From Stegostoma tigrinum (Eukaryota): a stretch of DNA of 64,000 bases. Location: NCBI RefSeq assembly GCF_030684315.1, contig NC_081355.1, forward strand, positions 67,232,924-67,296,923, given 5' to 3'. How positions within the stretch are numbered: the first letter of the stretch is position 1; the number at the start of each line of letters is the position of its first letter. Shown here one piece after another: positions 9,355-47,036 of this stretch. A program made the translations under genes and the position numbers. The notes under the pieces were generated by a model. The model was not told the origin of the DNA, did not search any database, and saw only the letters and a list, made by a program, of their open reading frames with translations.

Positions 9355-9448
9355 ATGCACCAGTCACTGGTAAGCAGACAGGCGCAGCAGGTGGCAAAAA
9401 AGACAAGTGAGAGGATTTGATTACAGGAGCAAGCTACAGCTATGACCA

Positions 9449-9979
9449 CGAAATGTGAGGCTGGATGAACACAGCAGGCCAAGCAGCATCTCAGGAGCAC
9501 AAAAGCTGACGTTTCGGGCCTAGACCCTTCATCAGAGAGGGGGATGGGGTGAGGGTTCTGGAATAAATAGGGAGAGAGGGGGAAGCGGACCGAAGATGGA
9601 GAGAAAAGAAGATAGGTGGAGAGAGTATAGGTGAGGAGGTAGGGAGGGGATAGGTCAGTCCAGGGAAGACGGACAGGTCAAGGAGGTGGGATGCCACCTC
9701 CTTGACCTGTCCGTCTTCCCTGGACTGACCTATCCCCTCCCTACCTCCCCACCTATACTCTCTCCACCTATCTTCTTTTCTCTCCATCTTCGGTCCGCTT
9801 CCCCCTCTCTCCCTATTTATTCCAGAACCCTCACCCCATCCCCCTCTCTGATGAAGGGTCTAGGCCCGAAGCGTCAGCTTTTGTGCTCCTGAGATGCTGC
9901 TTGGCCTGCTGTGTTCATCCAGCCTCACATTTTGTTGTCTTGGATTCTCCAGCATCTGCAGTTCCCATTATCTCTGATA
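9449..9979 (+). mobile_element. PLE-terminus fold-back insertion: ~239-bp inverted arms (9451-9689 / 9694-9932) + 3' tail; 15-bp TSD
   Basis: Near-perfect inverted repeat with 4-nt loop; TSD CTACAGCTATGACCA at 9434-9448 and 9980-9994; arms match the 3' UTR of the PLEs at 23047-23629 and 39184-40553. Confidence 0.93.
9508..9535 (-). ncRNA. Minimal type-I hammerhead ribozyme motif (PLE-associated)
   Basis: CTGATGA-A-GGGTCTAGGCCC-GAAA-C-GTC on minus; the + arm copy (9848-9875) has GAAA>GAAG. Confidence 0.75.
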
Positions 9980-10433
9980 CTACAGCTATGACCATCTTGG
10001 TGAAACCATATCTGGAATATTGTGTGCAGTTTTGGTCTCTTTAACAGAGGGAGGATGTTCTGCTGTAGAGGGAGTATTGTGGAAATTTACCAGACTGATT
10101 CCTTGGAATGGTGGGGTTGGCATATGAGAAGATGTTGAATCAGTTAGGATTATATTTGCTGAGGTTAAGAATACTGAGGGGGGAATTTCACAGAAACCTG
10201 TAAAATTTTAACAGAACTGGAGGAGGTAGATGTGGGCAGGTTTTTCCTAATAGCATGAGAGAGGGCAGAAGCAGGGTTTACAGTTTAAGGGTACATGTAC
10301 CATTTAAGACTGGGTTAAGGAGAATTTTTGTTGCTCCCAGATATTTACTATCACAGAAACCATTCAAGGCTAAAACACTGTATAATTTCAGGATGGAGTT
10401 GGACATAGCACTTGGGGTCAAAATGGATAAAGG

Positions 10434-10810
10434 AGTCAAGGGATACAGGGGAAACAACATCAACAGGCTTTTCAGTTGGATGATCGGCCATGAGCATTGT
10501 AAATGACGGAGAGGGCTTGAAGGGCCAAATGGCTTACTCCTGCTCCTAATTTCTATTTTCTCGCGAACAATAATTGGTGATCCCCTAATGCATTTGAGAC
10601 TGACTGGCCTGACACATGTCTCTAAAGAAACAATCTAGATGCACAGAATTCAATGTCATTGTGACTTTTACAGTCCCAGTTTTTCAATTGAATTGTCTCC
10701 CAGTCAACAAGGACATGGTGTTCCTGAAGGAGGTGACATCAGAAAGTGATAGAATCCCATGACATCCTCAGCTCCCTTTGACACTGTCACTCTGCCATTT
10801 GCAGGAAATT
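10434..10810 (+). repeat. Left arm of old inverted duplication (partner 12190-12549)
   Basis: Collinear diverged match to the reverse complement of 12190-12549, spanning a CR1 3' end plus ~250 bp downstream. Confidence 0.8.
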
Positions 10811-11566
10811 ATACTGCCTGCAGTATGTCTAGTTATATTTTGTTGCTCAGTGTCTCCCTGACCCCTGGCTGTTATCATCTTGAGCTGTCGGATCTTCTGC
10901 CGGTTCTCTTGTTGGCATCTGACTGCCATTGAGCCTGATCCTGGGCCAAACTCAGCTGATTACTCTGCTGCTATGCCAAAGCCAGTAGAACCACTAAACA
11001 TACTTGAGTCTTTTAGTGTTGATGAGGTGAATGGTAGACAGTGCAGGCAAAAATCTAGTCAACACAATCTCTATGCGCCCCTCCTGATCTAAAAGTGAGC
11101 CATTCCATGGTGTTGACCCTGGTCTTTGTACACCTGATAATGGATATTTTCAACCTTGACTATTTTCCTGAAACAATCACTTGCTGTTGCAGTTATATTT
11201 CTGGATACTCCCATAATAGCCTTCAAACTGGAAGCTATTACCTTGCTTTCCTTTGATAACTTTGAAATTGTTTCCTTCCTTCAGCTTCCACTCCCACTCC
11301 ATCACCTTTGCTCTGACCTCTAACCCATCCACCATCACCATTGATCAACTATTGTTCATCTTAGACCTGCACTGAATCCCCCAACCTCAACATCCCCGCC
11401 ACTGTCAATCAATGGTCCCACCCTCCCCAGAATCAGCACCACTGTTCGCCCCCTTGGTCAGCCATATTCTGATCCTCCTGTGTAGGCAGCACTCTCCCTT
11501 TCCATGCTCACTCCTTCGCTCAGTCAGGGCCAGATTCTCTTGCACTACTACTACCTGATCACAATA

Positions 11567-11890
11567 AATCACAGAATCCCTACAGTGTGGAAACAGACCC
11601 TTTGGCTCAATAAGTCCACACTGACCCTCAGGGCATCCCACCCAGAATCATTCCTCTCTGACCCACCTAATCTACATATCCCTGAACTCTATGGGCAATT
11701 TAGCATGGCCAATCCACCTAGCCTGCACATCTTCAGATTGTGGGAGGAAACTGGAGCATCTGGATGAAACCCACACAGACTTGGGGATAATGTGCAAACT
11801 CCATGCACACAGTCGCCCAAGAATGGATTCAAACTCGGATCCCTGGTGCTGTGAGGCAGCATTGTTAATCACTGAGTCACTGTGCCGCCC
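11567..11890 (-). mobile_element. HE1-type SINE
   Basis: Head GGGCGGCACAGTG, V-core, tail TTTCCACACTGTAGGGATTC on minus. Confidence 0.92.
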
Positions 11891-12189
11891 AACTCACCCA
11901 CAGTCCAAAAAAAAACCTGCCTGTGAAGAAAAAATCCTGCTTCTATCAAGCCCAAACCCACCAGGAAAATCACTATGCCTGCTGTACACCCCATCTTTAA
12001 ACACTCATGAATCTGAAAGCTTATGTTTCTTGTTTACTGCAGGATTAATCATAAAGTTTCACTTAATCCAATGACATAATTTTTTTTACTGAAGGTGTAT
12101 GATGTGCTAATGCATTCAAAATAAGTTCCCACCCATCAATTGCCATCAGGAAACTCAATATGCTTTCATTCTATCACCACCCTAATATA

Positions 12190-12549: not shown

Positions 12550-13593
12550 ACTGATGTTGGAAATTTGACCTTTGCTTTTTGATGCAATAAAATATATTAA
12601 ACACATTTTCCATTCCTGGCAGCAGCACTGGTTTCAGCCAGAGTTTTTTGTTTCCCTAGGTTGCATAAGTATCATTTACTTCTGGGCTGTTGTCAAGTGG
12701 CTATTATTTATGCATATATCTGGCATTTATCATATTGTCACATTGCTAGGGAGGAGACATTACAATAATTCCTAACCCTACCCTTGCGTAATGTCTGCAT
12801 GCATGCACATCCAGTTGAAGCCATTGGATCACTAGCAGTAGGAAAAGTGTTTTTGTCCCCTCATTGAATGTGTTTAGGACCTCTAATTTAGTATTTCAAA
12901 CATGGGTTGGGTGTACAGTTCAAGTATTTATTGGAGGAAATAAAATGTAACTGAATTTTTAAATGGCTGTTTTTAATAGCTCCTAGAATTGAAACAATGA
13001 CAAAGGAGGCTACAGTGTTAATTGGACTTCTGCAGCCAGTGCCCCTGAGTTTGAGAGAATATAACGTAATCACACATGTCATTTGCCTTTGGCTGGTGTC
13101 CAAACTTCAGATTTCATACCTGCCCTTTTGAAGAATTACTGGTTCGGAATCTTTATGCTCACTGCCAGCCAGACATTATATTCCTAACTTCATTTGGAAA
13201 ATTGTTCAGCCAGATTCAATTGAATTTGGATTTAAATAATTATGTAATGTGAAAAGTAAATAGATTACGTCTATTTAAAACAGTTCAAACAAATGAATTA
13301 CATGTGCGTTGTTGAAATTTTCTTCAATTTAAGTTAAAAATCCTAGCTACTGGGAATTAATCTGTGTAAAGGGTGAGCAGGATTTAGAATTTGCACAAGT
13401 AAAATCACCAGATGACTAGGTAAACAACATTGAAAAATGATGACCTGGTGATTCACTGGTTTTTCTTTGTCATGTGGAATAGAATGTGCAATGGCTTCAT
13501 TATATTTATGCAAGTCAACAATTAATTGGCCAACATGCAAAATCCTGTTGCTTAAAGCTGTCTGTTTATTAAAAATAGACATAACTAGACATT

Positions 13594-13686
13594 TCTGAAG
13601 AAGGATCTGGTACCAAAATGTCAGCTTACTTGCTCCTCTGATGCTGCTTGCTTGCTGTGTTCATCCAGCTCTACACCATGTAATCT
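13594..13686 (+). mobile_element. Short PLE-terminus (degenerate hammerhead) insertion with 8-bp TSD
   Basis: TCTGAAGAAGGATCTGGTACCAAAATGTCAGC...TGTTCATCCAGCT; TSD TAGACATT at 13586-13593 and 13687-13694. Confidence 0.8.
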
Positions 13687-14254
13687 TAGACATTAATTAT
13701 GTTCTGGGTAAAAGATAGGGACTTCTTAAAACTGCACTATTTTAACAGAAATTAATTGCAATTCAAAGTTATGAAGATTTAAATCATTGCTGTTTTTCGT
13801 AAGATTTCATGGAAGAAGGGACGTTAAAAAGATTGGATTGCACCAACAGTAGATTGGTGTAGGCAATCATGACCAATAGGGAGGCCTAAGCATAATGACA
13901 GTGCTGCTATAACTAATAATCCGGGACTTCAAGCTTATGGGTTTGAATCCCACCTTGACAATAGCCTTTTAAATATGACAACAATGACTGTCTGTCCTAG
14001 GATATCTGGCCAATGATTAGAATGGTACAATCCAGCTAGCATCAGGTGAGATAGGTGCCTTACGAGGGAATAGGTAGTTAATGGGGCAAGTTTAGATGAT
14101 TGCATAAGAAAGTGCACCAGGCCTCGCTGAGAGAAAACCTCCAGGAAACTTGATGAAAGTGACACATCCAAAATATGACATTGATCAGGGCTACCACATA
14201 TAATAGGTTTTAAGCGAGTACTTAGGCAGCGAACATAAATTGTGAAAAACACAT

Positions 14255-14466
14255 TTCACTGACCAATCCCCACCAATTCCGACCTGCATCCGCCTATCAC
14301 GATCCCACCTACCTTTCCCAAGCCCCACCCCTCCTCCCTTTATTAATTTCCCAGCTCCCTTCCCCGTCCCCATTTCTGAAGAAGTGTCCCAACCAAAACG
14401 TCAACTTTCCTGCTCCTCTGGTGTTGCCTGGCCTGCTGTGTTCCTCCAGCTCCACACTGTGTTGAC
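14255..14466 (+). mobile_element. PLE 3' terminus, intermediate-age subfamily
   Basis: C-rich 3' UTR then CTGAAGAAGTGTCCCAACCAAAACGTCAACTTTCCTGCTCC. Confidence 0.8.
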
Positions 14467-14680: not shown

Positions 14681-15086
14681 TTAATTAGGAAAATGTAATA
14701 GGTGAAAGAGAGAAAGGTCAGAGCAGGACAGGCATGATGAATGACAAGTGACTGACTGAGAATTTGCAATTTGAAGTGTTCCTAGTTGATCAGTGAGCAC
14801 TGGACAAATAAGTATATAGGGCCTGATATGAGATGGGGTAGGAGTTTGAGATAAGCCTATGTTTATGAAGAGTGAAAGTAGGGAGGTTGGCAAGAAAATG
14901 TTTAGAATTTAAGAGTGTAAAAGTAGTAAAATTATAGATAAAGATTTCAGGAGTAAATTAGCTGATGCAGGGTGAACTGCAATATTTTGAGATAGGTAAG
15001 CTAAATGATCGAGAGGATATGTGGTCTGAAATCCAACCTAAGTTCAAACAGATTTAGGGATGCAAGTGGTTTGCTTCAACCTGAAG

Positions 15087-15311
15087 TATGGAGCTGGATG
15101 AACACAGCAGGCCAAGCAGCATCTTAGGAGCAGGAAAGCTGACGTTTCGGGCCTAGACCCTTCATCAGAAATTCTTCATCATTTCTGATGAAGGGTTTAG
15201 GTCCGAAACATCAGCTTTCCTGCTCCTACAATGCTGCTTGGCCTACTGTGTTCATCCAGCTCCACATCTTGTTATCTCGGATTCTCTGGCATCTGCAGTT
15301 CCCATTATCTC
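15087..15311 (+). mobile_element. PLE-terminus fold-back insertion (arms ~15089-15172 / 15181-15265) + tail
   Basis: Inverted hammerhead-bearing arms with 8-nt spacer, followed by tail GGATTCTCTGGCATCTGCAGTTCCCATTATCTC; no clear long TSD. Confidence 0.9.
15141..15168 (-). ncRNA. Minimal hammerhead ribozyme motif (partner on + at 15185-15212)
   Basis: Intact CTGATGA/GAAA core, stem II and GTC site. Confidence 0.72.
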
Positions 15312-15484
15312 AGAAGTGGATGGACTTGGGGTCCAGAGAGTGGGAGTTTGTTGAGGGTACTTAAACAATTGCTTTGGTTTTCCCAACATTTGATTGGAAC
15401 AGATTTCTGCTCAGGCGAAACAGGATGCTGGACAAGCAGTGTGATAAATCAGAAGCAGTGGAGTGATCAGCAGTGGTGATAGTG

Positions 15485-15590
15485 CAACAAACACACAAAT
15501 GCTGGAGAAGCCCAGCAGGTTTGGCAGCCCTGGCCGAGGGAAAAACTGAGTCAACATTTCAAGTCCTATATGATTCTTCTTCAGAACTGG
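15485..15590 (-). mobile_element. Old PLE-terminus/hammerhead fragment
   Basis: Minus: CAGTTCTGAAGAAGAATCATATAGGACTTGAAATGTTGACTC...CTGCCAAACCTGCTGGGCTTCTCCAGC. Confidence 0.7.
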
Positions 15591-16159
15591 TGATAATATA
15601 GCATTTGACAGCCTGGTGTCATCAGTCCACATGTGGAACCCAATGTTGTGATTTCAGATAATATTATCAAAGATGGGAAATTAAGGGGCTAAGCTTTTAT
15701 CATTATGGGAACTTCAGAAGTGTTGGTTCAGGAGTAAGGAGAGAAATCCCCTTTGATCATGATTGTCTGGAGATGGCTGGATAAATAATGGTTGAACCAG
15801 GCAAAATTAGTTTCACTCCTAAAGTAGCAACATAGGGCTTGATGTCTAAGAGTATATCATCTTTGCAATATGGGATATTGTTTACAAAATATACTGAAGT
15901 GAAAGGATGTCATTAATTGCTTCCCTTAAGTGAATAAGTAAAATAAATCATTTGCAGTCATAATCTGAAATTGAGATTGGTAAAAGGACCCATTCCAAGT
16001 AAAAAAAAGATGTTTTCCCAAACTGGACAGAAATTAAGCTTTCCATTAAAAAAATTACAAAAGAAATGACACAATAAAAACAGCCATTGGCAGTTGATCC
16101 ATGTTCAGATATCAGTCTGTGACACCAGCTGACTGGGTAGAGGCTCTTTTTCTCCTATC

Positions 16160-16281
16160 CCAGTTCTGAGGAAGGGTCATTCAACCTGAAACCTTAACTG
16201 TGATATTTCTCCATAGGTGCCTACAGATCTGCTGAGCTTTTTCAGCAATTTCTGTTCATGTTGCTACTTTACAATATCCGC
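16160..16281 (+). mobile_element. Old PLE-terminus/hammerhead fragment with tail
   Basis: CAGTTCTGAGGAAGGGTCATTCAACCTGAAACCTTAACTG...; possible TSD GGCTCTTT on both sides. Confidence 0.72.
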
Positions 16282-16899
16282 AGTTCTTCCAGTTTTTGTT
16301 TCGGCTCTTTACCCTGTACTATTCTCTGAAGTCCTTCATCTGTCTTTATCCTTCCTTCTCATGCATCAAAACCACTAAAGCTTTGGTCGCATTACTGATT
16401 ACTGCCTGTGCATGATTAATCTGGAACTCTAATTGGCTCATCGGTACATGGTCAGTTCCTGGTCAATCTTGGATTGATAAGGCAGATAATTTCTATTCAA
16501 TCTGTTCAGTGATATTGTTACACATCTCTGGAGCCAGTGGGACTTACATCCAAGCCTTCTGGGTCAGAGGTAGGGAAACCATAACTAAACCGCAAGAGTT
16601 CTTTTGGAATTGCTAGATTGTTTGTGCCTAATTTGTGACTGGTTTCTTCAAATGTAATGATTGGCTTGCTAGCATAATGTCCAACAATCTCAGTTATTCT
16701 TTAACATGCAAATAATTTCAAAAGATTGTCCATTTTATAACAGTTTGTCCCTCATATCTTACCTTTTCCAAAGGTCTTAGGACATAGGTGAACTTTTAAT
16801 GCATCTGCTAAACTATGTAGTAACTCTTCCTAGTGATTAACTAACATCCCAAATATCCCAGTCAGGAGATCGGAATATTCATCAAAATACGTCCAAATC

Positions 16900-18200
16900 T
16901 TTTAACTAGTTAATCTGACATTGATGGTAGGGAAATTATTGGAAAAATTTCTGAAGGACAGGATTAATCAATAGTTGCATAACCAGAGACTGATCAAGAG
17001 TAGTTAACATAGAGTAGTAGTTAGATTGATTAATTGACTAATTTAGTTGAGTTTTTTGGAAAGGTGATGAAATATGTTGATGAGGGTAGTGCAGTTGGTG
17101 TAGTTTACAGAGACATTTCTCAGACCTTTGACAAGGTATCCACGTGGCAGAATGATCTATGAAGTAACTGCCAATGGGATCCAAGGCAAGCTGACAAACT
17201 AGATCTCAAGTTGGTTTGCAAATAAGAGGCAAAGTGTGATGGTGGAGGGTTGCTTTTATGATTCAAAGCCCATGACAAGTGGTGTGCTACAGGGTTCAGT
17301 GCTGGGACCTTTGCTGTTTGTTATGTCCGTTAGAGACTTGGATGTGAATGAGGAAGGTATAATTATGCTTGCAGATGATACAAAAGTATTAGTAGTAGTC
17401 AGAGGCAATGATCTGATATTGATCAGCTGGTAAATTGGGCAGAGCAATGGCAGTCAAAATTTAATCCTGGTAAGTATGAGGTGAGGCAATTTTGGGAGTT
17501 TAATAAGTGAAGAATATATACAATGAATGGTAGGTCCCTAGGAAGTACTGAGGAACAGAGGGACCTTTGTGTACAAACCCTGAAGTTGTCAGCACAGGTA
17601 GACAGGGTGGTGAAGAAGGTATATGGGATGCTTGCCTTCATCAGCCCGGCCATAGAATGTAGCAGCAAGAAAGTCTTGTGACAAGTTTATGAAATGTTTG
17701 TTCAGCCTCTTATGGAATACTTTGTGCCATTCTGGTGCCCATATTATTGAAAGGATGTGATTATACTGGAGAGGGTGCAAAGGAGTTTCCCCAGGAGGTT
17801 GCTTGGGATGAAAAAGCTCGGTCAAGAGGAGCGGCTGGATCAGTTGTGTTTGTTTTCCTTGAAAGAGAGAAGGCTGAGGGTGAATTTGATTGAGGTACAC
17901 AAAATTATGACAGGTATGAACAAAGCAGATTGTGAGAATCCCTTCCCCATAGCAGACATGCCTAAGACCAGAGCACATAGCATAATGTGAGGAACAAATG
18001 CAGTATAGTGCCCAAGGGGAGGTGGAGGCAGATATTCTTACAACATTGAAGAAGCATCTGTTTGAGTATATTCTAAATGGCAGGGCATTGTCAGCTCTGG
18101 ATCAAGTTCAGGTAAATGGGATAAATGGAGTTTGGTATTTGTTGTCAGCATAGACATGGTGGGCTGAAGGGCCTGTTTCTCTGCTTAATGACTCTTTGAC
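16900..18200 (+). mobile_element. Decayed CR1 RT and 3' UTR
   Basis: SGVLQGSVLGPLLF, LADDTK, LERVQRSF motifs with frameshifts and stops. Confidence 0.9.
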
Positions 18201-19499: not shown

Positions 19500-19636
19500 A
19501 TAAAAACTGAAAGAGCGGCGGATATTTTAAATCAGAAACAAAAACGGAAATTGCTGGAAAAGCTCAGCAAGTCTGGCAGCATCTGTAGAGAGAATTCAGT
19601 CTTAATTTTTTGGGTCAAGTGACACTTCCTTAGAAT
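19500..19636 (-). mobile_element. Old PLE-terminus fragment with tail
   Basis: GAAATTGCTGGAAAAGCTCAGCAAGTCTGGCAGCATCTG...GGGTCAAGTGACACTTCCTTAGAA. Confidence 0.7.
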
Positions 19637-22078: not shown

Positions 22079-22339
22079 GGTAGGTGATATTTCCATCATG
22101 AAATTGCTACTAGATTTGTTCAATAAATTAGAAAAGTGTGTAACAATACAATGTCTGTACATTTTCCAGTTGCTATATTTTCCAGCTTGAAAACTAAAAG
22201 AAGGGCTTTTAATTTATACACTACCTTACATGACCACTGGATATTGCAAAGTATGTTACAACCAATGAAGCGATTTTGACGTGAGGTCACTATTGTAACA
22301 TAGGAAATGACACTGCTTATTTATACACTGCAAATGATG

Positions 22340-22452
22340 AAAATCTGAAGAAGAAACAGAAAATTCTGAAAATACACAGCTATGTCAGGCAGCATCTGAG
22401 AAGAGAAAGCAATTGTCATTGGTTCAGGCCAATGGTCCTTCAAAAGAACTGA
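22340..22452 (-). mobile_element. Old PLE-terminus fragment followed by purine-rich 3' UTR remnant
   Basis: AAACAGAAAATTCTGAAAATACACAGC...CAGGCAGCATCTG...CCTTCAAAAGAACTG. Confidence 0.55.
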
Positions 22453-23046
22453 CCAAAGCTATAAATAGATAATGATCAACAGAATGGTGGGAGACTGGTA
22501 AAAGGACAAAAAGAAAGCTCTCTGATCAAGCAAAATACAAGGGAGATTAAGTAACAAAAATTGATGGTCTTGGGTCAAAATGAGTGGTAAAGAAACAAAC
22601 AACGATAAAATTATCTGTCTCAAGAATATGTAAATGGTTGGATAATGAACAACGATGAAAGCAGGAACAAAGAAATAACGTGAGTAAAAACTATGTCAGT
22701 AAAGAAAAAGAAAACAGACTGAAATATTGAGCAGCACCTACTCAATAGATGAGGTATTCTTTTGAGAATAGTCCTTGAACCCAAAACCATCTAGCACAGA
22801 AGCAGAGTAAGACCAAGTGCATCACAAAATCTAAGTAGATCCTTTTAACCATGATCCTAAGGAGTTGATAATGGTGAGACATTAGCACTTGAACCACAGT
22901 GTTTTGCTAATTTGAATTTAAATACCTAACAGATTACCTTTCTTGAATCACACTGATTTCGGGGGAATTTTTAAATCACAATCAGCACAAGAATAATTTC
23001 ATGTTTTCATTAAATTATATTTCATAACATTAACAGTGGAATAGGG

Positions 23047-23629
23047 AACAGCAACTCATATTCCGCCTGGGGCACTGCCACAATGATGCCACCCGAAGGT
23101 TGCAGGAACAGCAACTCATATTCCGCCTGGGAACCCTGCAGCCATATGGTATCAATGTGGACTTCACCAGTTTCAAAATCTCCCCTTCCCCTACTGCATC
23201 CCTCAACCAGCCCAGTTCATCCCCTCCCCCCACTGCACCACACAACCAGCCCAGCTCTTCCCCCCCACCCACTGCATCCCAAAACCAGTCCAACCTGTCT
23301 CTGCCTCCCTAACCGGTTCTTCCTCTCACCCATCCCTTCCTCCCACCCCAAGCCGCACCCCCAGCTACCTACTAACCTCATCCCACCTCCTTGACCTGTC
23401 CGTCTTCCCTGGACTGACCTATCCCCTCCCTACCTCCCCACCTACACCCTCTCCACCTATCTTCTTCACTCTCCATCTTCGGTCCGCCTCCCCCTCTCTC
23501 CCTATTTATTCCAGTTCCCTCCCCCCATCCCCCTCTCTGATGAAGGGTCTAGGCCCGAAACGTCAGCTTTTGTGCTCCTGAGATGCTGCTTGGCCTGCTG
23601 TGTTCATCCAGCCTCACATTTTATTATCA
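23047..23629 (+). mobile_element. Penelope-like element 3' fragment (GIY-YIG C-terminus + 3' UTR/pLTR), 10-bp TSD
   Basis: QEQQLIFRLGTLQPYGINVDF; TSD TGGAATAGGG at 23037-23046 and 23630-23639. Confidence 0.92.
23537..23564 (+). ncRNA. Minimal hammerhead ribozyme motif
   Basis: CTGATGAAGGGTCTAGGCCCGAAACGTC. Confidence 0.75.
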
Positions 23630-24214
23630 TGGAATAGGGCATCTTGTTTTGTTCCTGGTTGAACTCAATTCATATTTAGACTAAAATGCATAGTATTATG
23701 ATAGATATAATTCATAATTTATTTACTTGGAACAGCTTGTTCCTTGGATTGTTGTTTTAATTTGTAGTATCTTTTCAAAATTGTCATTTGTTAAGATGTC
23801 AATTTGAAATGTGCTGGAAGCCAGATGATTGTATTGTGCTCTCCTAGAAACAATTTACATTATGTAGCAGGTAGGATAAAGCAAGCTTTATGTAGACGAA
23901 GCTGTGAGAAGCAGGCTCTATTTATTAAACACTTGCATTAAACCTGGTCTTGGTTCAGCCTGGCTCCCCCACCACTCCCTTCCTGACAGTATAATATGAC
24001 ATGATGAAATCAGGTCAGCAAGCTGTCATTAACATGTGAGTCTCAGCTTTTGTGGGAAATGAGTAACTGTAGGAATCAGAAGTCTGCCAACCATTTTAAA
24101 CATATTAATTAACAAGCTATTGAGCTTGCTAAACATTCAATTGTTTGAAATTTTTCATTTCCGACTCTTTTTTTTACGGGAGGCAGAATGCTTCAATCTA
24201 AGAATGATTCAAGT

Positions 24215-24297
24215 GTTGTACTGGGCTTGAAACGTTAACTCTGTTTCTCTCTCCATCGTCAGACCTGCTGAACTTCTGCAGTATTTTCTGTTTTGTG
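24215..24297 (+). mobile_element. Old PLE-terminus fragment
   Basis: GAAACGTTAACTCTGTTTCTCTCTCC...CAGACCTGCTGA. Confidence 0.6.
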
Positions 24298-26900: not shown

Positions 26901-26964
26901 CTAAAAAAAAGACAAAAAAAAAGTTCCACCCAGGAAACTTTGGTGCATTAAAAAGACAGTAAAT

Positions 26965-30570: not shown

Positions 30571-30585
30571 ATAATATCATGACAA

Positions 30586-31052: not shown

Positions 31053-31199
31053 ATTTATGTCCAGCTGATGTAAAGATGGTAGACTCCCTCACTATTCTGT
31101 CAATCTTCTGACTCGATATGGAATGCCGTTATCCTAATATCCACTTCAGCGATTAATTGAGTGAATTGTTGCAGTATTATGAATGTCTCACTGTGCAGA

Positions 31200-31282
31200 G
31201 ACGGCAGCACAGTGGTTTAGTGAGTGGCTCTGCTTCCCCACACCAGCAGGGACCTGGGTTCAATTCCAGCCTGAGGCAACTG
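31200..31282 (+). mobile_element. HE1 SINE head only, truncated at the PLE junction
   Basis: GGCAGCACAGTGG...GGGTTCAATTCCAGCC A/B boxes. Confidence 0.8.
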
Positions 31283-31375
31283 TGATACTGGGAACTGCAG
31301 ATGCTGGAGAATCCAAGATAATAAAGTGTGGAGCTGGATGAACACAGCAAGCAGCATCTCAGGAGCACAAAAGCT

Positions 31376-31403
31376 GACGTTTCGGGCCTAGACCCTTCAT
31401 CAG
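31376..31403 (-). ncRNA. Minimal hammerhead ribozyme motif in the PLE 3' terminus
   Basis: Intact core identical to 23537-23564. Confidence 0.75.
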
Positions 31404-31904
31404 AGAGGGGGATGGGGTGAGGGTTCTGGAATAAATAGGGAGAGAGGGGGAGGCGGACTGAAGATGGAGAGAAAAGAAGATAGATGGAGAGGAGAGTATA
31501 GGTGGGGAGGTCGGGAGGGGATAGGTCATTCCGGGGAGGATGGACTGGTCAAGGAGGTGGGATGAGGTTAGTAGGTTGGAAATGGAGGTGCGGCTTGGGG
31601 TGGGAGGAAGGGATGGATGAGAGGAAGAACAGGTTAGGGACGCAGAGACAGACTGGGCTGGCTTTGGGATGCAGTGGGTGGAGGGGACGAGCTGGGCTTG
31701 TTTAGGAATGCAGTGGGGGGAGGGAAAGAACTGGGCTGGTTTTGGGATGCAGTGGTGGAAGGGGAGATTTTGAAGCTTGTGAAGTCCACATTGATACCAC
31801 TGGGCTGCAGGGTTCCCAAGTGGAATATGAGTTGCCGTTCCTGCAACCTATGGGTGGCATCATTGTTGGACTGCAGGAGGCCCAGGATGGACATGTCGTC
31901 TAAG

Positions 31905-31982
31905 GAATGGTGGGCGGTGGGTGGGCGGTGGGGGGGGCGGGGGGGGGGGGGGGAGGGGCGGGGGGGGGGGCGGTGGGGGGAG
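31905..31982. repeat. G-rich tract (G-quadruplex-prone) within the PLE
   Basis: Runs of G separated by single C/T/A; absent from the paralogous site at ~40025-40040. Confidence 0.85.
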
Positions 31983-33396
31983 AGTTAAAATGGTTCGTGA
32001 CTGGGTGGTGCAGTTGTTTATTGCGAACCGAGCTGAAGTGTTCTAAAAAGCGGTCCCCAAGCCTCCGCTTGGTTTCCCCATTGTACAGGAAGCCACACCG
32101 TGTACAGTGGATACAAAATACCACATTGGCAGATGTGCAGGTGAACATCTGCTTGATATGGAAAGTCATCTTGGAGCCTGGGATGGGGGTGAGAGAAGAG
32201 ATGTGGGGGCAATTGTAGCACTTCCTGCGGTTGCAGGGGACGGTGCCGGGTGTGGTGAAGTTGGAGGGGAACGTGGAGCAGACAAGGGAGTCATGCAGCG
32301 AGTGGTCTCTCCGGAAGGCAGACAAGGGTGGGGTGGGAAAAATAGCTTGGGTGGTAGGGTCGGATTGTAGATGGCGGAAGTGTTGGAGGATGATGCGTTG
32401 TATCCAGAGGTTGGTGGGGTGGTATGTGAGAACGAGGGTGATCCTCTTGGGGCGGTTGTGGTGGGTGCAGGGTGTCAGGGATGTGTTGCAGGAAATGCGG
32501 GAGACACGATCAAGGGCGTTCTCCACCACTGTGGGGGGAAAGTTGCGGCTTTTGAAGAACGTGGACATCTGGGATGAGCGGGAGTGGAATGCCTCATCCT
32601 GGGAGCTGATGCGGCGGAGGCGAAGGAATTTGGAATAGGGGATGGAATTTTTGCAGGAGGGTGGATGGGAGGAGGTGTATTCTAGATAGCTGTGGGAGTT
32701 GGTGGGCTTGAAATGGACAACAGTTTCTAGCTGGTTGCCTGAGATGGAGACAGAGAGGTCCAGGAAGGTGAGGGATGTGCTGGAGATGGCCCAGGTGAAC
32801 TTGAGGTTGGGGTGGAAGGTGTTGGTGAAGTGGATGAACTGTTCGAGCTCCTCTTGGGAGCAAGAGGCAGCACCGATACAGTCATCAATGTAATGGAGGA
32901 AGAGGTGTGGTTTGGGGCCAGTGTAGGTGCGGAAGAGGGACTGTTCCACATAACCTACAAAGAGGCTGGCATAGCTTGGGCTCATGCGGGTACCCATGGC
33001 CACCCCCTTTGTCTGTAGGAAGTGGGGGGAATCGAAAGAGAAGTTGTTGAGGGTGAGGACGAGTTCGGCTAGGTTCCCTGATCCTGATGGCAACCCTGTA
33101 ATCTCTGTTAGAAGTGCATATATATGGACAATGGATCAATGGGTGTAAGTTATAATTGCTTTGTGTGATGGCTTTTAAAGTTTATTTCTCTAAAACTGAA
33201 AGAATTTCCATGAGAGATCACATAAATGTGGCAAGTCATTATGTACAATGCACTTACAAATGCATTTCTTCAAATATGCCCCTTTCCAAACCGAAACAAA
33301 AATTTCCATGCATTGCCATTCTCTGCCACGTTATCTAAAATACTTGGTATATAGGGAAAAATAACATATAAACAAAAGTTGTATTTATGCTAAACT

Positions 33397-33588
33397 AAGA
33401 TAACAAAGTGTAGAGTTGGATGAACAAGCAGGCCAAGCAGCATCTCAGGAGCGCAAAAGTTGACATTTGGTCTCGGCCCGAAATGTCAGCTTTTGTGCTC
33501 CTGAGATGCTGCTTGGCCTGCTGTGTTCATCCAGCTTCACACTTTGTTATCTTGGATTCTCCAGCATCTGCAGTTCCCACTATCTCTC
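33397..33588 (+). mobile_element. PLE-terminus fold-back insertion (arms ~33397-33468 / 33481-33553) + tail; ~13-bp TSD
   Basis: Inverted arms; TSD TT(T/C)ATGCTAAACT at 33384-33396 and 33589-33601; turn-around falls inside the hammerhead stem II. Confidence 0.9.
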
Positions 33589-33800
33589 TTCATGCTAAAC
33601 TTTCCCACTTTCATCAATCTCTGCCTATGTATTTAATATATATTCTTTAAAGCATCAAGATCTTTGAATCGTACTCATGCACACTATGGTCACTTGTGCA
33701 TTTGTTATCTGCTTATTTCTGGAGAGGCTGTTCCTGCAGTGAGTGTCTGATTAGAGCAAAATGCTTCTCTTTCAGATTCAATAGGAAGAATATTTGTATT

Positions 33801-36199: not shown

Positions 36200-36525
36200 G
36201 GCAGGGGGGCACAGTGGTTAGCACTGCTGCTTCACTGTGCCAGGGACCCAGGTTCAATTCCACCTTCAGATGACAGCCTGTGTGGAGTTTGCACATTCTC
36301 CTTGTGTCTGTGTCAGTTTCTTCTGTGTGCTCTGGTTTCTTCCCACAGTCCAAAGATGTGCCATGCTAAATTGCCCATAGTGTCCAGCAATGTGCACGTT
36401 AATTGTATTAGTCATGGGAAATGCAAGGGATAGAGTAGGGAGCGAGTCTGTGTGGGATGCTCCTCAGAAAGTCGGTGTGCACTTGTTGGGACAAATGACC
36501 TGTTCCCACACTGTAGGGATTCTAT
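36200..36525 (+). mobile_element. HE1-type SINE
   Basis: CACAGTGGTTAGCACTGCTGC...GGTTCAATTCC...GTTTGCACATTCTCC...CACTGTAGGGATTCTA. Confidence 0.93.
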
Positions 36526-36714
36526 ATATCAGTGGGGAGGAATACCAAGAAAGAATACCAGATACCAACTTTTGGAAGCTCACCAAGGGTAAAAGGCTGA
36601 GCCTGCGATTTACTGCATGAAGCACAACAGTTTCCATTCATCCCAAATAACAATTGTGTAACAGAGCTGAAAATGGCTGCCACTACATCTAGAGTGGGCA
36701 GGGAGAGTGTTTCA

Positions 36715-37052
36715 GTGATAATGGGAACTGCAGATGCTGGAGAATCCAAGATAACGAAGTGTGAGGCTGGATGAACACAGCAGGCCAAGCAGCATCTCAG
36801 GAGCACAAAAGCTGATGTTTCAGGCCTAGACCCTTCATCAGAGAGGGGGGTGGGGAGAGGGAACTGGAATAAATAGGGAGAGAGGGGGAGGCGGACCGAA
36901 TCTTCGGTCCGCCTCCCCCTCTCTCCCTATTTATTCCAGTTCCCTCTCCCCACCCCCCTCTCTGATGAAGGGTCTAGGCCTGAAACGTCAGCTTTTGTGC
37001 TCCTGAGATGCTGCTTGGTCTGCTGTGTTCATCCAGTTCCACACTTCGTTAT
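36715..37052 (-). mobile_element. PLE-terminus fold-back insertion (arms ~36750-36900 / 36903-37053, 2-nt loop) + tail; 16-bp TSD
   Basis: TSD CAGGGAGAGTGTTTCA at 36699-36714 and 37053-37068; hammerhead motif at 36962-36989 and in the mirror arm. Confidence 0.93.
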
Positions 37053-38369
37053 CAGGGAGAGTGTTTCATTCTGGAGCAAGGAGGCTTCAATGTCAAGCAA
37101 TTTGACATCCTGTAACAGGCAGCAGTACCGCACAAATCCAAACCATAGACCGGAAAGACATCTGTGGGCACTACATGCTACGTGAATTTAAGCATTCACC
37201 AGCTGTGTGGAGTATAAATCCTCTTCACCACAGAGTCTTGACCACATAATGTGGCATCAGGAATCAATGCCAATAAAGGCTGCAGTGCGGAAGCACTGTA
37301 TTGCAATCTGGAAAGATTCACCCTTATTTCTAAAGTAGCAGTCACCTTCCAGGATCTTGTAGCTTGCACGTGATGCAGAAACTGCTCGCTTTACACTTTG
37401 TGATGTCAAGCCATACAAGGCTATGATCCAAGAGCTGTAAAGTGGGATGAGATATAGAATAGACAGATCATTATTTTTGACCTTCATAGGCACCATGGGC
37501 TAAAGGTCCTTTTTACTGTGCTGTAAATCTTTACAACTCTGCATGAATAATCATTGCTTGACTGAGGCAGCAAGAAGTGAACAGTGAAATAGAATTGATG
37601 TGCCCTCAGGAGATGGAAAAATATTGGTGAGAGAAAACTGCATATTTCACAAAATGATGACTGGTGCAATGAGAGAGTCTTTCAACAGAACCTGCACAAA
37701 TGAATGGCTCTGTCAGCTTAGAAAGAGATATTGGTGGTGGAGTTGCCAAACTCTAGGAATCACTTTCACTCGCTAGGAGTTGGAGATTAATTTGCAATAT
37801 AGAAATCATCAAAACATTAAAAAAGAATTTCTTTAGAATCATTTTCTTTTTAACATTTCATAGATCAGATATCGAGTTACTAAAAATAAGAAAGAAAGGC
37901 TGCTTGGATGACTGTCAAAAATCTTCCAATTGTGGCACGGGTCTTTTTTTCATCTTCCGATTGGCATGGGAACGCAGTGTGTCCATGAGGTGGGTGTTTT
38001 AGCTGAAGACTGACTACAGCCTGCAGGCAAATCATATGATCAAACCTCCAGGAATAATTTAATCACAGATGTCAACTCTAGTTCATGGTCAAATATTCTG
38101 AAGTTTGATACTTCCAATTCTGCAGGGTACAAAACATTTAACTGTGACACACAACTGATTGTAAGCAATGAAGCACTGATATCCTAAAGATTTCCTTCAA
38201 TTTACTTTGGTATTTCATTCCCTACAAATGTTGTATATGCAGAAAACAGTAGGAGGAAGCTTAATGGACCAAATGATCATTCTACATTTTATACTTTAAA
38301 ATTACAACAGCTGGACACTGAACAGAAGCAAACTAAAATTCTGAGATCATATAAAAATAACAAGCTCTT

Positions 38370-38640
38370 ATATTTAAATCACAAGATTTAATGCAAAAAC
38401 TTAGATAGTTTTAACTTAATAAGGAGATAGAGTAGATAAGGTGAAACTGTTTCTGTTGATGGAATGTCAAGAATCAGAAACACTAATTTAGGGTTCTGAA
38501 GAAGGGTCACTGGACACAAAATGTTACCTTTGATTTCTGTTCACAGATGCAGTCATACTTGCTGAGCTTTTCCAGCAATTTCTGTCTTTGTTACCAATTT
38601 AAGATGCTTACCAAAAGAGTAGAATAGGATAATTATCTGG
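38370..38640 (+). mobile_element. Old CR1 3' remnant carrying an inserted old PLE/hammerhead fragment (~38492-38592)
   Basis: CR1-like flanks; insert GTTCTGAAGAAGGGTCACTGGACACAAAATGTTACC...; imperfect TSD AC(T/C)AATTTA(G/A)G. Confidence 0.6.
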
Positions 38641-39183: not shown

Positions 39184-40553
39184 CACCAACACCTTCCACC
39201 CATACCTCAAGTTCACCTGGACCATCTCCAACACATCCCTCACCTTCCTGGACCTCTCTGTCTCCATCTCAGGCAACCATACAGAAACCGATGTCCATTT
39301 CAAGCCCACCGACTCCCACCGCGACCTAGAATACGTCTCCTCCCAACTACCTTCCTGCAAAAATTCCAACCCCTATTCCCAATTCCTTCGCCTCCACTAC
39401 ATCTGCTCCCAGGATGAGGTATTCCACTCCCAAAGATCCCAGATGTCCTCATTCTTCAAGGGCCGCAACTTCATCCCCGCAGTGTTCGGGAACGCCCTCG
39501 ACTGTGTCTCCCGCATTTCCCACAACTCATCCCTCAGACCCTGCCCCCGCAATAACTGCCAAAACAGAATCCCCCTCGTCCTCACATACCACCCCACCAA
39601 CCTCCAGATACAACACATCATCCTCCGACACTTCCACCATCTACAATCCGACCCCACCACCAAAGACATTTTTCCATCCCCACCGTTGTCTGCCTTCCGG
39701 AAAGACCACTCTCTCTGTGACTCCCTTGTCTGGTCCACACTCCCCTCAAACCCCACCACACCTGGCACTTTCCCCTGCAACTGCAGGAAGTGCTACACTT
39801 GCACCCACACCTCCTCCCTCACCCCCATCCCAGGCCCCAAGAAGACTTTCCACATCAAGCAGATGTTCACCTGCACATCTGCCAATGTGGTATACTGCAT
39901 CCACTGTACCCGTTGTGGCCTCCTCTACGTTGGGAAACCAAGCGGAGGCTTGGGGATTACTTTGCAGAACACCTCCGCTCGGTTCACAATAAACAACTGC
40001 ACCTTCCAGTCGCGAACCATTTCAACTCCCCCTCCCATTCCTTAGACCTGCCCATCCTGGGCCTCCTGCAGTGCCACAACGATGTTGCCCAAAGGTTGCA
40101 GGAGCAGCAACTCATATTCCGCTTGGGAACCCTGCAGCCCAGTGGTATCAATGTGGACTTCACCAGCTTCAAAATCTCCCCTCCCCCTACAGCATCCCAA
40201 AATTAGCCCAGCTCATCCCCGCCTCCCTAACCTGTTCTCCCTCTCACCCATCCCCTCCTCCCACCTCAAGCCGCACCTCCATTTCCTAACTACGAACCTC
40301 ATCCCGCCCCCCTGACCTGTCCATCCTCCATAGGCTGACCTATCCCCTCCCCACCTCCCCACCTATACTCTCCTCTCCACCTATCTTCTCCTCTATCCAT
40401 CTTTGATCTGCCTCCCCCTCTCTCCCTATTTATTTCAGAACCCTCCCCCCATCCCCCTCTCTGATGAAGGGTCTAGTCCCGAAACGTCAGCTTTTGTGCT
40501 CCTGAGATGCTGCTTGGCCTGCTGTGTTCATCCAGCTCCACACTTTGTTATCT
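39184..40553 (+). mobile_element. Penelope-like element 3' part (RT thumb, GIY-YIG, pLTR), frameshifted
   Basis: High similarity to 31283-32830; YCIHCTRCGLLYVG / ETKRRLGDYFAEH; hammerhead at 40461-40488. Confidence 0.95.
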
Positions 40554-43744: not shown

Positions 43745-44022
43745 ACTTTGAATGTGGAAGCAGGCCATTCAGCCCAATGTGTCTACACTGACCCTCTGAA
43801 GGCATCCCCCACAGACACACTGCTCTACCTTAGCATTCCCATGGCTAATCCACTTAATCTGCACATTTTTAGAGTATGGGAGCAAACTGGAGCACCCAGC
43901 AGATATCAATGTAGATGTGGGGAGAATGTACAAACTCCACAAAGTTGCCCAAAGGTGGAATTGAACACGGGTCCCTTGTGCTGTAAGGTAGCAGTGCTAA
44001 GCACTGAACCACAATGCCGCCC
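43745..44022 (-). mobile_element. HE1-type SINE (older)
   Basis: Head and V-core on the minus strand. Confidence 0.85.
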
Positions 44023-44609
44023 CCTATGTACAATGAGACATTCATAATACTGCAACAATTTGTTCAATTAACATGTGAAGTAGGCATCATTGGCAAGGTC
44101 AACATTTGTTGTCCAGTCCTAATTGTCCCTGAACCACATGACCTGCCAGGCCATTTCAGAGGGTGGTTAAGAGTCAAATACTTTATTGTGGAGTTGGGGT
44201 TACACAAGTCAGATGCCTTTTGAAAATGTTAAATGTAGGTATAAACATGCATTCAGAAAACATGAGCACACTGGAACTGTCAAGCCACTAGAATTGTTAA
44301 GTGAGCTATCAACAATGCTGTTGAACAGAATTGTCAAGTGGAGCCAGGAAAGGGAGCTATTGCAGGGGTCTGTTGAAAGGAACTGTTATCAGTTATCAAA
44401 GATACCTGTAAACACATTAAAAACTCCAGTTGTTTAATTATTTGGTAAGACTGTGTGTAGAGTTTACAAAATGGTGCTTGCTATTGCACTGTCTACTTAT
44501 GTAAGCCTGAGGGTCATTATGGCAGGATTGCTGTCTCATGACTGATTTCACAGCCTTTCAACATCACAGCGGGGAGCCTGTCAATTTCATTGTCAGTTCC
44601 AAGCCTTCT

Positions 44610-44975
44610 TTTCTTTCATAAGAAGTGAGCATCATTGACAAGGTCAATTTTTGTTGTCCAGTCCTAATTATCCTGAAATGAGCATCCTGCCAGACTTTTC
44701 AGAGGACAGTTAAGAGTCAACCACAGTATTGATCAGCCAATATGAAGGTTTCCTTCTGTTGACGACATTACTACCGAAGATACTTTTTAAAAAATTGTTA
44801 TAATAATCAATGATCTTGGTCATCACTGATTACTTTCTTTAATCTCCAAATTTTATACATTGAATTTAATTTGTACTATCTGCTATGGTGGGATTTAAAG
44901 CCATATCCCTATAACATTGGCCTGGGTTACTAATTTACTCGTCTAGTGAAATTACCAGTACACCATCCTTTCCTC
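44610..44975 (-). mobile_element. tRNA-derived SINE (same family as 8052-8382)
   Basis: CAGTTAAGAGTCAACCACA and ...ACTCGTCTAGTGAAATTACCAGTACACC head on minus. Confidence 0.7.
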
Positions 44976-45199
44976 CACGTGGTTTACCGCCATGAGACAA
45001 TGAATTCCAATGATTATTTTTATATTTGTTTAAAGAAATTTCAATATATAAGCCATATCCCTATAACATTGGCCTGTGTTACTAATTTACTCGTCTAGTG
45101 ATATTACCAGTACACCATCCTTTCCTCCATGTGGTTTACCGCCATGAGACAATGAATTCCAATGATTATTTTTATATTTGTTTAAAGAAATTTAAATAT
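44898..45199. repeat. 152-bp tandem duplication (2 copies)
   Basis: 44898-45049 vs 45050-45199, only a few substitutions. Confidence 0.95.
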
Positions 45200-46704
45200 G
45201 TTGACCAGGATTTTATTGAGAGTAGATTTTAATAAAAATAGTGAGTTCATCATCATACACTGAAGAACTTTGGTCCTGAGATCACGGCATGGTAGATTCT
45301 AGGCATATTGGTACGGTAAGTAAAAAATCTTCTGTTATTGCAAGGTCACTGGCTGGAATTCCAATCCAGCGCTCATCTTGTAGAACTGAAAATGGGAAGA
45401 ACAGATGTTCATTTTAAAGTTTGGCTTTGTGGAACCAGACTTTTTCTACATTAATGCGCCTGACCTGAACAAAAATTGAGACCATTGATTTTATCCCATC
45501 TTACTGTTTCTGTTATCAAGTTAGTTTCACATTATGACTCAGTGCTATTCTCTGTTATCATCTTGGAATCTGCCAGAGGGTGCAACAAGCTGCAATTTTG
45601 ATTAATAGAAAAATCACAAGTTATGTGATCTTGTAATGACTTTCCAAGAGTACGATCCTTTCATTGAATCACAGAAATGTGAAACTGCTGCTAAAGTATG
45701 ATTAGTAATGGATTTTGAAACAGTATAGTTCTTTTCTAATTAGGCTAAATGGATGAATAACCTTCTTGATCTCTACTAGTCTTGTGAATTATTTTCTCAA
45801 AAATGTGTTTCTTTAAAATCCATGATAGAAGTCAACTTGGCTGGTTTTAAGCATTCATCTATTACTTTTGCTGCAACATTAGCCACATGCACCAGTTCCA
45901 TGGGCCTGGGCTAGAAATTGATTTCTGCCCCTGGTCCTGAGTGAGACCAGCTCTAGAATGCTGTGTGCAGTATTAATCCTCTTATTTAAATAAGGAAATA
46001 AATAAGTAGTAATTGCAATTGATTGAGAACATTTACTACACTGCAATTTGTAAGGTGTGAGTTGTCTTAAGTGAAGAGATTGGATAGTCTATGTTTGTAT
46101 TCACTGGATTCAGCACAGCAAGAGGCAATTTGATTGAATACATTTTATTCTTCAGTAGTGGTCTTGTAAGATGGAAGAGCAGGATCAAGTAGCCTAATGA
46201 CCTACACTGGCTCTGAATTTGCATGCACATATGATCGTTTTTGTGGAATTTACATTAATTACAAATACTCTAAACAATCTAGACCAAGAAATAAGAAATA
46301 AGATCTTGGTAGTGTTTAATTTTCTCACCCATAAAACATATGGGAACTCACATAAAGTTTCATGAACTTCACAGAGTGAAATTTGTCTGTTTCAAATCTT
46401 GATACAACAGTTAACCAGAAGTGAGCATTTCCAGTTGATTATTGAAAACACAAGGCCCACATTGTTCAATAATCTGGTAACCATTAAGATTGTGAAAAAT
46501 TGCTACTGATGCAGACATTGGGAGATAGCTATGAGTAGTTCTTGCTTTCAGTGGCGGGAGTGGTGAGGACAAGAGCCAAGGTGCTGTCAGGAAGGTAAGG
46601 CTTTTTCTGTATAAGGATGTACCTTGTGCAGTAGTGGCCTTCTTGCTTTCAGCGGCGGGGGTGTGTACAAAAAGCGAGCCAGGAAGGAACTAATATATTC
46701 GGGC

Positions 46705-46888
46705 TAGAGATAATGGGAACTGCAAATGCTGGAGAATCCAAGATAATAAAGTGTGAAGCTGGATGAACACAGCAGGCCAAGCAGCATCTCAGGAGCACTG
46801 ATGAAAGGTCTAGGCACGATACGTCAGCTTTTGTGCTCCTGAGATGCTGCTTGGCCTGCTGTGTTCATCCAGCTTCACACTTTATTAT
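46705..46888 (-). mobile_element. PLE-terminus fold-back insertion (arms ~46741-46798 / 46833-46890; loop is the hammerhead core) + tail; 15-bp TSD
   Basis: TSD CTAATATATT(C/T)GGGC at 46690-46704 and 46889-46903, inside the putative CR1 5' UTR. Confidence 0.9.
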
Positions 46889-47036
46889 CTAATATATTTG
46901 GGCATTGTCTAAATCCAAAACACTACACGTGTAGTGTCTCCCACACATCCTCCTCCTCAAATCAAAAAAAGGCTGTGTGGAGGGGCGCTAAGGTCAGGCT
47001 TTTTTTTTATTCCTGTGGAAATCTAGAGCAGAGGGA

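Follow-up and report, generated by a model that had tools for sequence, protein, structure and literature searches.

In the accessible parts of the reports on PLEs from rotifers, flies and fish (PMC3846280, PMC8557442, PMC2377424), an inverted pLTR is described with a TSD, an optional tail and a palindrome at the junction; these junction palindromes were read as products of self-priming (PMC3846280), and the formation of the tandem and inverted structures of PLEs was called undefined (PMC8557442). The palindromic architecture reported here is already published, and a PLE specialist would not be surprised by it. Minimal hammerheads lying on opposite strands 100-700 bp apart, derived from truncated PLEs, were reported in Schistosoma and vertebrates, with a minimal type-I consensus comprising CUGANGAH, a helix II opening with G-C, GAAA, a palindromic N-N, UH and a short helix I (PMC4209133); the searchable part of the supplement to that paper contained no cartilaginous fish terms. 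The non-LTR retrozymes, non-coding derivatives of PLE pLTRs with type-I hammerheads, are also present in a chondrichthyan (bioRxiv 10.64898/2026.07.22.740005). The literature search returned no twin-priming account of PLE inversions and no shark PLE palindromes; subscription papers may hold one.

The 64-kb window analysed here (the whole stretch of Stegostoma tigrinum DNA) contains five palindromes of one architecture, A to E, as the preliminary description had claimed. Palindrome A (9434..9994, plus strand) is inserted in a CR1-type LINE fragment between TSDs at 9434-9448 and 9980-9994, and comprises a tail-less inverted arm (9449-9689), a 4-nt spacer reading as inverted arm (9690-9693), a forward arm (9694-9939) and a tail (9940-9979). 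Palindrome B (15085..15313, plus), which belongs to an older subfamily, has an inverted arm at about 15085-15172 with an eroded outer end, an 8-nt templated insertion (15173-15180), a forward arm (15181-15277) and a tail to about 15312; both arms begin 4 nt before the hammerhead core. Palindrome C (33384..33601, plus) consists of TSDs at 33384-33396 and 33589-33601, an inverted arm (33397-33468), a 12-nt sense spacer from the hammerhead stem II region (33469-33480), a forward arm (33481-33553) and a tail (33554-33588). The remaining two lie on the minus strand: D (36699..37068), with TSDs at 36699-36714 and 37053-37068, a tail (36715-36749), a forward arm (36750-36900, minus), a 2-nt spacer and a tail-less arm (36903-37052, plus); and E (46690..46903), with TSDs at 46690-46704 and 46889-46903, a tail (46705-46740), a forward arm (46741-46798, minus), a 34-nt spacer continuing the tail-less arm (46799-46832) and the tail-less arm itself (46833-46888, plus).

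The aligned arms span 246 nt at 98% identity in A (9444-9689/9694-9939), 84 nt at 93% in B, two pieces of 42 and 35 nt in C, 156 nt at 96% in D and 58 nt at 100% in E; the mismatches amount to 3, 6, 6 and 5 aligned positions in A-D (C minus three end-gap columns) and 0/58 in E. The four TSDs of 13-16 bp announced previously were confirmed in A (15 nt, exact), C (13 nt, one mismatch), D (16 nt, exact) and E (15 nt, one mismatch), the lowest of the four scores being matched by 5/2000 random position pairs; no TSD above background was found in B (best candidate 8 nt with one mismatch). Equally, the tail of ~35-45 nt is confined to one arm in each palindrome, as stated before. The whole insertions measure 184-531 nt and the turn-around point is different in 5/5. 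The statement that they encode no protein agrees with a tblastn search of 87 PLE proteins against the palindromes, which gave no matches on B-E and four weak ones on A (E 0.02-0.09). The computed fold of A is a near-perfect hairpin (-540.8 kcal/mol).

The palindromes are almost certainly dead, ORF-less, 5'-truncated insertions of an EN+ Neptune-like PLE, with an inverted pLTR placed head to head as is usual for such elements. Their derivation from a PLE 3' terminus with a minimal hammerhead, already suspected, is upheld. The window also contains RT/GIY-YIG copies of the element: copy G (31281..33135, minus), a 5'-truncated PLE with RT (YIDD), CX4CxxC linker, GIY-YIG, 3' UTR, hammerhead and tail; and copy H (39184..40553, plus), 5'-truncated, frameshifted and tail-less, running from the RT thumb to GIY-YIG, UTR and hammerhead. 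Neither has an inverted arm. The marks of an EN+ PLE, a YIDD RT and a CxxC within the GIY-YIG motif, were found in G and H, as was the CX4CxxC linker between RT and EN. A Zn-finger-like CX2-5CxxC linker in this place marks the Neptune and Nematis clades (PMC8557442), and the parent PLE is putatively Neptune-like, by the linker motif only. The protein homologues of G and H number 87 at E<=1e-20, some with PF01541, the best named one, at 68% across 72% of the query, being from Chiloscyllium punctatum; a direct Pfam search of G gave a weak RVT_1 match (E 0.0013) and no GIY-YIG match. The DKG region, present in the homologues, lies upstream of the truncation point in every window copy.

The other copies are solo: F (23037..23641, plus), tail-less, with a TSD, whose 5' end carries a short jump-back duplication; I (53781..53909, plus), tail-less, with an exact 13-nt TSD, a start 4 nt before the hammerhead and a miniature inverted arm of 6-7 bp at 53793-53799 (background 139/63800 positions); J (54771..54920, minus), older, with a tail, a 10-nt TSD and a start about 3 nt before the hammerhead; K (13586..13694, plus), older and tail-less, with an 8-nt TSD and a start about 4 nt before the hammerhead; and L (14290..14465, plus), older and tail-less, with the upstream UTR kept and no clear TSD. 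No direct tandem pLTR copies were seen in the window, and 0/9 copies of an older related family in it have an inverted partner. Palindromes make up 5/12 insertions of the young family, so the proposal that they are a routine integration outcome stands as to frequency; that the outcome is specific to this lineage does not, since it is published elsewhere. The host gene scan covered the non-repeat frames of at least 62 aa (145/166; the 21 omitted overlap known repeats) and, while short exons escape such a scan, gave one match; it lies at 47611, is to a GDSL esterase and was interpreted as LINE ORF1.

The hammerhead pattern occurs 12 times in the window (expected number 0.33), and 10 of these matches belong to the PLE family, whose hammerhead fits the published minimal type-I consensus with a helix I of only 2 bp. 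The preliminary description had each palindrome carrying ribozyme-derived sequence, which holds only loosely: a complete core is present in 5/10 palindrome arms (A inverted, at 9508..9535 on the minus strand; both arms of B; both arms of D), and in the other five it is incomplete, the forward arm of A (9848-9875) having a single substitution in the GAAA box, both arms of C and the forward arm of E missing the CUGA half, and the inverted arm of E being mutated. Over 6 pairs, 94.4% of cells are paired, two pairs show two-sided changes and 4/500 shuffles scored as high, a statistic that is weak because its 13 copies are related. None of the 87 Rfam matches at E<=5 was to a hammerhead; most were to generic miRNA-hairpin models, and all fell below the gathering score. 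Folding of the pLTR RNA against shuffles revealed no excess structure (z -0.8 to +1.0, 5 sequences). Counting positions with the hammerhead C3 as +1, the predicted cleavage site is +29, and hammerhead cleavage was rejected as the source of the 5' ends because no copy begins there (nearest starts +22 to +26 and +36). The 5' ends of many short copies cluster about 4 nt ahead of the hammerhead, a position that may be the start of the RNA. A G-quadruplex-like motif was observed in the antisense UTR (9538-9573), and may instead be the cause of this 5'-end cluster.

The 3' ends fall into two classes. Tailed ends lie at +132 (A), +129 (C and E), +127 (D) and +126 (J); tail-less ends of palindromes lie at +94 (C), +91 (D and E) and +87 (A, to +92 with imperfect microhomology), and the solo copies F, I and K share a tail-less end at +93, adjoining their TSDs. 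Under a uniform-stop null, P = 3.5e-4 for at least 3/5 inverted arms in +91..+94 and P = 5e-6 for 5/5 in +84..+94, both intervals having been picked post hoc. An identical hexamer occurs at +88 and +121, and beyond seven tail-less junctions the target equals the element at 20/35 bases (about 9 expected at 25%). Every palindrome combines one tailed and one tail-less end (5/5; P 0.01-0.03 if independent). The spacer is antisense in A, D and E, and hence belongs to the arm without a tail (in A and D on 2 informative bases each), sense in C and ambiguous in B. Locus-specific variants are common to both arms of a palindrome; in D and C the arms differ from each other at +76..+79, which is at odds with one identical template.

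In the twin priming of L1, the RNA is reverse-transcribed from primers on both strands of the target, giving an inversion at the 5' junction and a TSD. We lean, on balance, towards twin priming as the origin of the palindromes, because the tail-less ends lie mostly at the solo-copy site, tailed and tail-less ends are paired in 5/5 and the spacer goes with the tail-less arm in 3/5. The GIY-YIG domain would nick both target strands 13-16 nt apart, and each target 3' end would prime reverse transcription within pLTR RNA, probably the same RNA for both: the downstream start site (about +127 to +132) would give a tailed cDNA, and the upstream one (about +91 to +94) a tail-less cDNA. Both antisense cDNAs would halt at about one place, an RNA 5' end or break, and would become linked in head-to-head orientation through end joining, a template jump, or snap-back of one followed by annealing to the other; gap filling would then yield TSD, inverted arm, forward arm, tail and TSD. 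Priming on RNA by only one end would leave a solo copy, tailed or not. The hammerheads would be passengers, since no read-through RNA would contain more than one sense core, and that core would be base-paired to its antisense copy. Against twin priming stand the small sample (n=5 palindromes), the sense spacer of C, the ambiguous one of B, the few informative bases in the spacers of A and D, the arm differences of D and C at +76..+79, and the eroded outer end of B with no TSD; the 34-nt asymmetry of E could stem from loss of central sequence after insertion, and a spacer can be inverted when arms recombine. The biochemical precedent is an anole PLE whose purified protein, a predicted dimer, cuts and extends both target strands, begins RT at two internal sites that bound the tail and does not require hammerhead cleavage (PMC11167929), but that element is of the Poseidon clade whereas the present one appears Neptune-like. 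More tentatively, a dimeric RT-endonuclease may use the two target strands as primers at two set positions on a single RNA, with run-off cDNAs from a start 4 nt before the hammerhead as the main product, which would make this genome a very large record of PLE integration.

That snap-back does occur is shown by the tight loops of A and D (2-4 nt) and by copy I with its miniature arm; these also suit a single-cDNA fold-back, which is close to the preliminary model and to published views and which we regard as possible but rather doubtful. One tailed cDNA would snap back and copy itself, and the endonuclease or the second target end would resolve the hairpin at a fixed tail-less site and join it to the other target end. 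The single tail per insertion would follow automatically, Craig et al. attribute the tail to endonuclease-mediated resolution (PMC8557442), private variants are common to both arms, and the turn-around of C, which has a sense spacer, falls at hammerhead stem II; however, fold-back predicts a sense spacer in 5/5 and it is clearly so in one, the solo copies F, I and K share the end site, with a TSD, without any long inverted arm, and in the anole element two start sites of RT correspond to the tail (PMC11167929). A pure second-strand fold-back of a single tailed cDNA, as first proposed, does not on its own account for the inverted arm stopping at the second 3' site of the family, nor for the spacers of A, D and E reading as tail-less arm. 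Self-priming on an antisense PLE transcript, with the RNA/DNA hairpin inserted whole, is the published reading of head-to-head junction palindromes (PMC3846280) and allows antisense spacers, but it fails to explain why both ends are the two sense-RNA start sites of solo copies, and the in vitro work employed sense RNA (PMC11167929); we consider it improbable.

Copying as a unit of a non-autonomous palindromic family, MITE-like or with a dedicated master, would account for short, non-coding insertions with inverted arms and TSDs, yet the junctions differ in 5/5, the arms range from 58 to 246 nt and differ in their subfamily variants, the TSDs are not of one length and the inverted repeat does not include the tail. 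Such a family is very hard to credit; the events are independent because junctions and subfamily variants differ, as the preliminary description had maintained. The MITE class as such was rejected on length (184-531 nt), TSD (13-16 nt) and the parent being an RT element. Chimeras produced by assembly or amplification, or late rearrangements of solo insertions, have about as slender a chance: a single assembly was analysed, the E arms are identical and PLE inverted structures trouble assemblers (PMC8557442), but the inversions stop at element ends adjoining TSDs and the arms of A-D differ at the positions counted above. A CR1 paralogue also aligns across a single copy of the A TSD, with a 9-nt gap just upstream. 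This empty-site alignment, obtained for 1/4 CR1 copies with softer parameters, is weak because a two-copy control scored the same; spanning BLAST matches in paralogous host repeats were found at 0/10 sites.

If the more tentative reading given above is true, head-to-head joining of cDNAs would account for two features of PLEs that have long lacked an explanation, the inverted pLTR and the one-sided tail. It would also seed long, nearly perfect palindromes at tens per megabase, which would be dsRNA sources and later be purged (0/9 older copies are palindromic). siRNAs are known to arise from inverted Penelope copies (PMC3681739); were the density of this one window typical, palindromes could have a bearing on silencing through dsRNA, on the stability of the genome and on its assembly. 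Where a family is present in many copies, as solos and as short palindromes between TSDs, counting alone can test twin priming against fold-back.

Among known systems, the inverted and forward segments of an L1 twin-priming inversion are non-overlapping stretches of RNA; the arms described here, unlike these, overlap almost wholly and form a palindrome, and the L1-type class was rejected, both arms covering the same sequence. A retrozyme requires a direct tandem of two or more hammerhead-bearing units, which allows dimeric ribozymes (bioRxiv 10.64898/2026.07.22.740005), and this class failed as well, the present copies being inverted or solo without direct arrays. The hammerheads share with those of PMC4209133 the minimal type-I consensus and opposite-strand pairs a few hundred bp apart; in the accessible part of that paper most motifs are solo, and junctions, TSDs and mechanism are not dissected. 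Like Poseidon PAc of Anolis, for which extension of both target strands was seen in vitro, the family has a pLTR hammerhead and two 3' ends bounding the tail, but the Poseidon clade is without the linker Zn-finger that the present PLE has, and inverted insertions are not discussed in the main text of the PAc paper (PMC11167929). The closest known parallels are Pen2, Pen2a and Pen3a of Adineta and Penelope of Drosophila virilis, which share, in the accessible descriptions, a head-to-head inverted 5'-truncated copy with variable arms, a 30-40 nt tail at one end, a variable TSD and a junction palindrome. There, the inverted arms are mostly on ORF-bearing tandems with TSDs of 8-10 nt; the insertions reported here, in contrast, consist entirely of the palindrome, have TSDs of 13-16 nt and occur at high density.

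The five palindromic insertions of the preliminary description (A, 9434-9994; B, 15085-15313; C, 33384-33601; D, 36699-37068; E, 46690-46903) were all present, both arms being found in the window sequence (arm lengths: A 246, B 84, C 42+35, D 156 and E 58 nt). The proposed one-sided tail was confined to one arm in 5/5, and the four target-site duplications (TSDs) claimed for them were recovered (A, 15 nt exact; C, 13 nt with one mismatch; D, 16 nt exact; E, 15 nt with one mismatch); the score of the weakest of the four was reached by only 5 of 2000 random pairs, and the flanks of B contained no TSD. As also described, none encodes protein: the arms consist of UTR and pseudo-LTR (pLTR) only, and tblastn with 87 Penelope-like element (PLE) proteins gave four weak matches on A (E 0.02-0.09) and none on B-E. 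Locus-specific variants were common to both arms of a palindrome, and for 5 of the 10 arms no sequence was nearer than the partner arm. Spacer polarity varied: A (4 nt), D (2 nt) and E (34 nt) have antisense spacers, that of C (12 nt) is sense, and B holds a templated insertion whose origin is ambiguous. A 4-nt site with five haplotypes in the family (+76 to +79, counting the hammerhead C3 as +1) differs between the two arms of D (36763-36766 and 37037-37040, approximate) and between those of C (33411-33416 and 33534-33539, approximate), which reflects a mutation hot spot or else the use of two templates. The arms of E (46741-46890) are identical (0/58 differences) and its unpaired spacer departs from the family at 3 positions, a possible case of arm-to-arm conversion.

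Self-comparison gave 12 insertions of this family (about 9% of the window): the five palindromes and seven copies lacking a long inverted arm. Two of the latter, G (31281-33135, minus strand) and H (39184-40553, plus strand), have coding sequence for RT, a CX4CxxC linker and a GIY-YIG domain. Of 3434 candidates >650 aa, 87 were homologues of G at E<=1e-20; the best of the named matches came from Chiloscyllium punctatum, in keeping with a shark-like host. This type of linker is a mark of the Neptune and Nematis clades (PMC8557442), and by this motif G and H are putatively Neptune-like. A C-rich low-complexity insertion (31920-31975) lies within the endonuclease region of G and is absent from H. 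At the start of the solo copy F (23037-23641), a duplicated stretch of about 25 nt, read as a template jump back, precedes the regular sequence (23047-23131). An older related family is represented by nine solo copies of about 100-135 nt, with or without tail (620-740, 15490-15592, 16150-16302, 19500-19636, 22327-22452, 24200-24305, 26960-27082, 38491-38592, 63141-63240), with an inverted partner in 0/9; one has an 18-nt flanking duplication with 2 mismatches (63124-63141/63239-63256).

Other repeats of the window include CR1-type LINE copies (4652-7167, 47221-51085, 33932-34852, 30585-31054, 17435-17980), one with an open 658-aa RT frame and another, almost full length, that has a GDSL esterase frame at 47611; a SINE-like dispersed family of about 300 nt identified by self-comparison (9032-9355, 11573-11893, 31153-31284, 36199-36540, 43753-44071, 61035-61319, 62538-62870), one copy of which adjoins the tail of G; and a 150-nt head-to-tail duplication (44898-45199, 97% identity).

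The minimal type-I hammerhead pattern had 12 matches in the window (0.33 expected) and fits the consensus given in the literature (PMC4209133); the Rfam scan of the window gave no hammerhead match. Its helices were 94% conserved over six base pairs, with two compensatory pairs, which is weak evidence since the copies are related. The suggestion that each palindrome carries ribozyme-derived sequence held in part, the full core being retained in only 5/10 arms. A read-through palindrome transcript would contain at most one hammerhead, buried within a long predicted hairpin, and minimal hammerheads are thought to require a second same-strand copy (PMC4209133); we therefore infer that those of the palindromes are inactive. 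A further match (51088-51116), outside both pLTR families and adjoining a LINE end, did not align with the pLTR and may be due to chance.

Tailed ends, set by the TSD, fell at +126 to +132 (A, C, D, E and the solo J, 54771-54920, minus strand), and tail-less ends at +91 to +94 in the inverted arms of C, D and E and in the solos F, I (53781-53909) and K (13586-13694). The inverted arm of A ends at +87, or +92 if imperfect microhomology is allowed; B, G, H and the solo L (14290-14465), without TSD, end near the tailed or the tail-less site. An identical hexamer occurs at +88 and +121. Under a uniform-stop null, three of five inverted arms within +91 to +94, an interval chosen post hoc, has a probability of 3.5e-4. 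At the other extreme, five (B, E, I, J, K) of nine short insertions begin between -4 and +2 (P 0.0006, uniform null; 0.015, exponential null). Most older-family copies begin at about the same point, the majority some 3-4 nt upstream of the decayed hammerhead. Copies retaining upstream sequence have a motif resembling an initiator, whose +1 falls at -4. The patterns scored there were Inr (L and two older copies; background 1.2%) and TCT-like (five young copies; background 0.4%), both backgrounds being higher in pyrimidine-rich DNA and three rows anchored one base off being left out. We infer run-off at the transcription start following priming in the 5' pLTR; alternatively, RT may be blocked at the C-rich tract.

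Every palindrome pairs one tailed with one tail-less end (5/5). In work on the anole PLE, the purified protein nicked both target strands and extended them, used two internal start sites flanking the tail, and had no need of hammerhead cleavage (PMC11167929). We consider it somewhat probable, from five palindromes with few informative spacer bases and possible later spacer deletion or inversion, that priming occurred from both target strands: each would prime RT at one of the two start sites, and the two cDNAs would then meet head to head. Such priming would explain why the tail is one-sided, why the inverted arm has a fixed outer end, and why tail-less solos and antisense spacers occur. A single cDNA folding back and being resolved by the endonuclease seems less probable. 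Snap-back probably helps the joining of the two cDNAs, because the loops of A and D are 2-4 nt and at the start of solo I there is an inverted arm of 6-7 bp with a 2-nt loop (53793-53808; background 0.2%), which resembles an aborted snap-back.

In literature searches that covered mainly papers available without subscription, we found neither an explanation of PLE inversions by twin priming nor a report of these shark-like palindromes; either may exist in subscription papers such as key PLE reviews. The five palindromes are real and their architecture is ordinary for PLEs; they are useful as countable cases on which to test an open point of PLE mechanism. Elsewhere, an inverted pLTR with TSD, optional tail and junction palindrome was interpreted as self-priming (PMC3846280). 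An inverted 5'-truncated copy and a one-sided tail are general PLE traits whose mechanism has been called undefined (PMC8557442, PMC8969392). Variable inverted repeats are the commonest form in D. virilis (PMC2377424), dual hammerheads occur on opposite strands 100-700 bp apart (PMC4209133), siRNAs match inverted regions (PMC3681739), and retrozymes are PLE derivatives in direct tandem (bioRxiv 10.64898/2026.07.22.740005).
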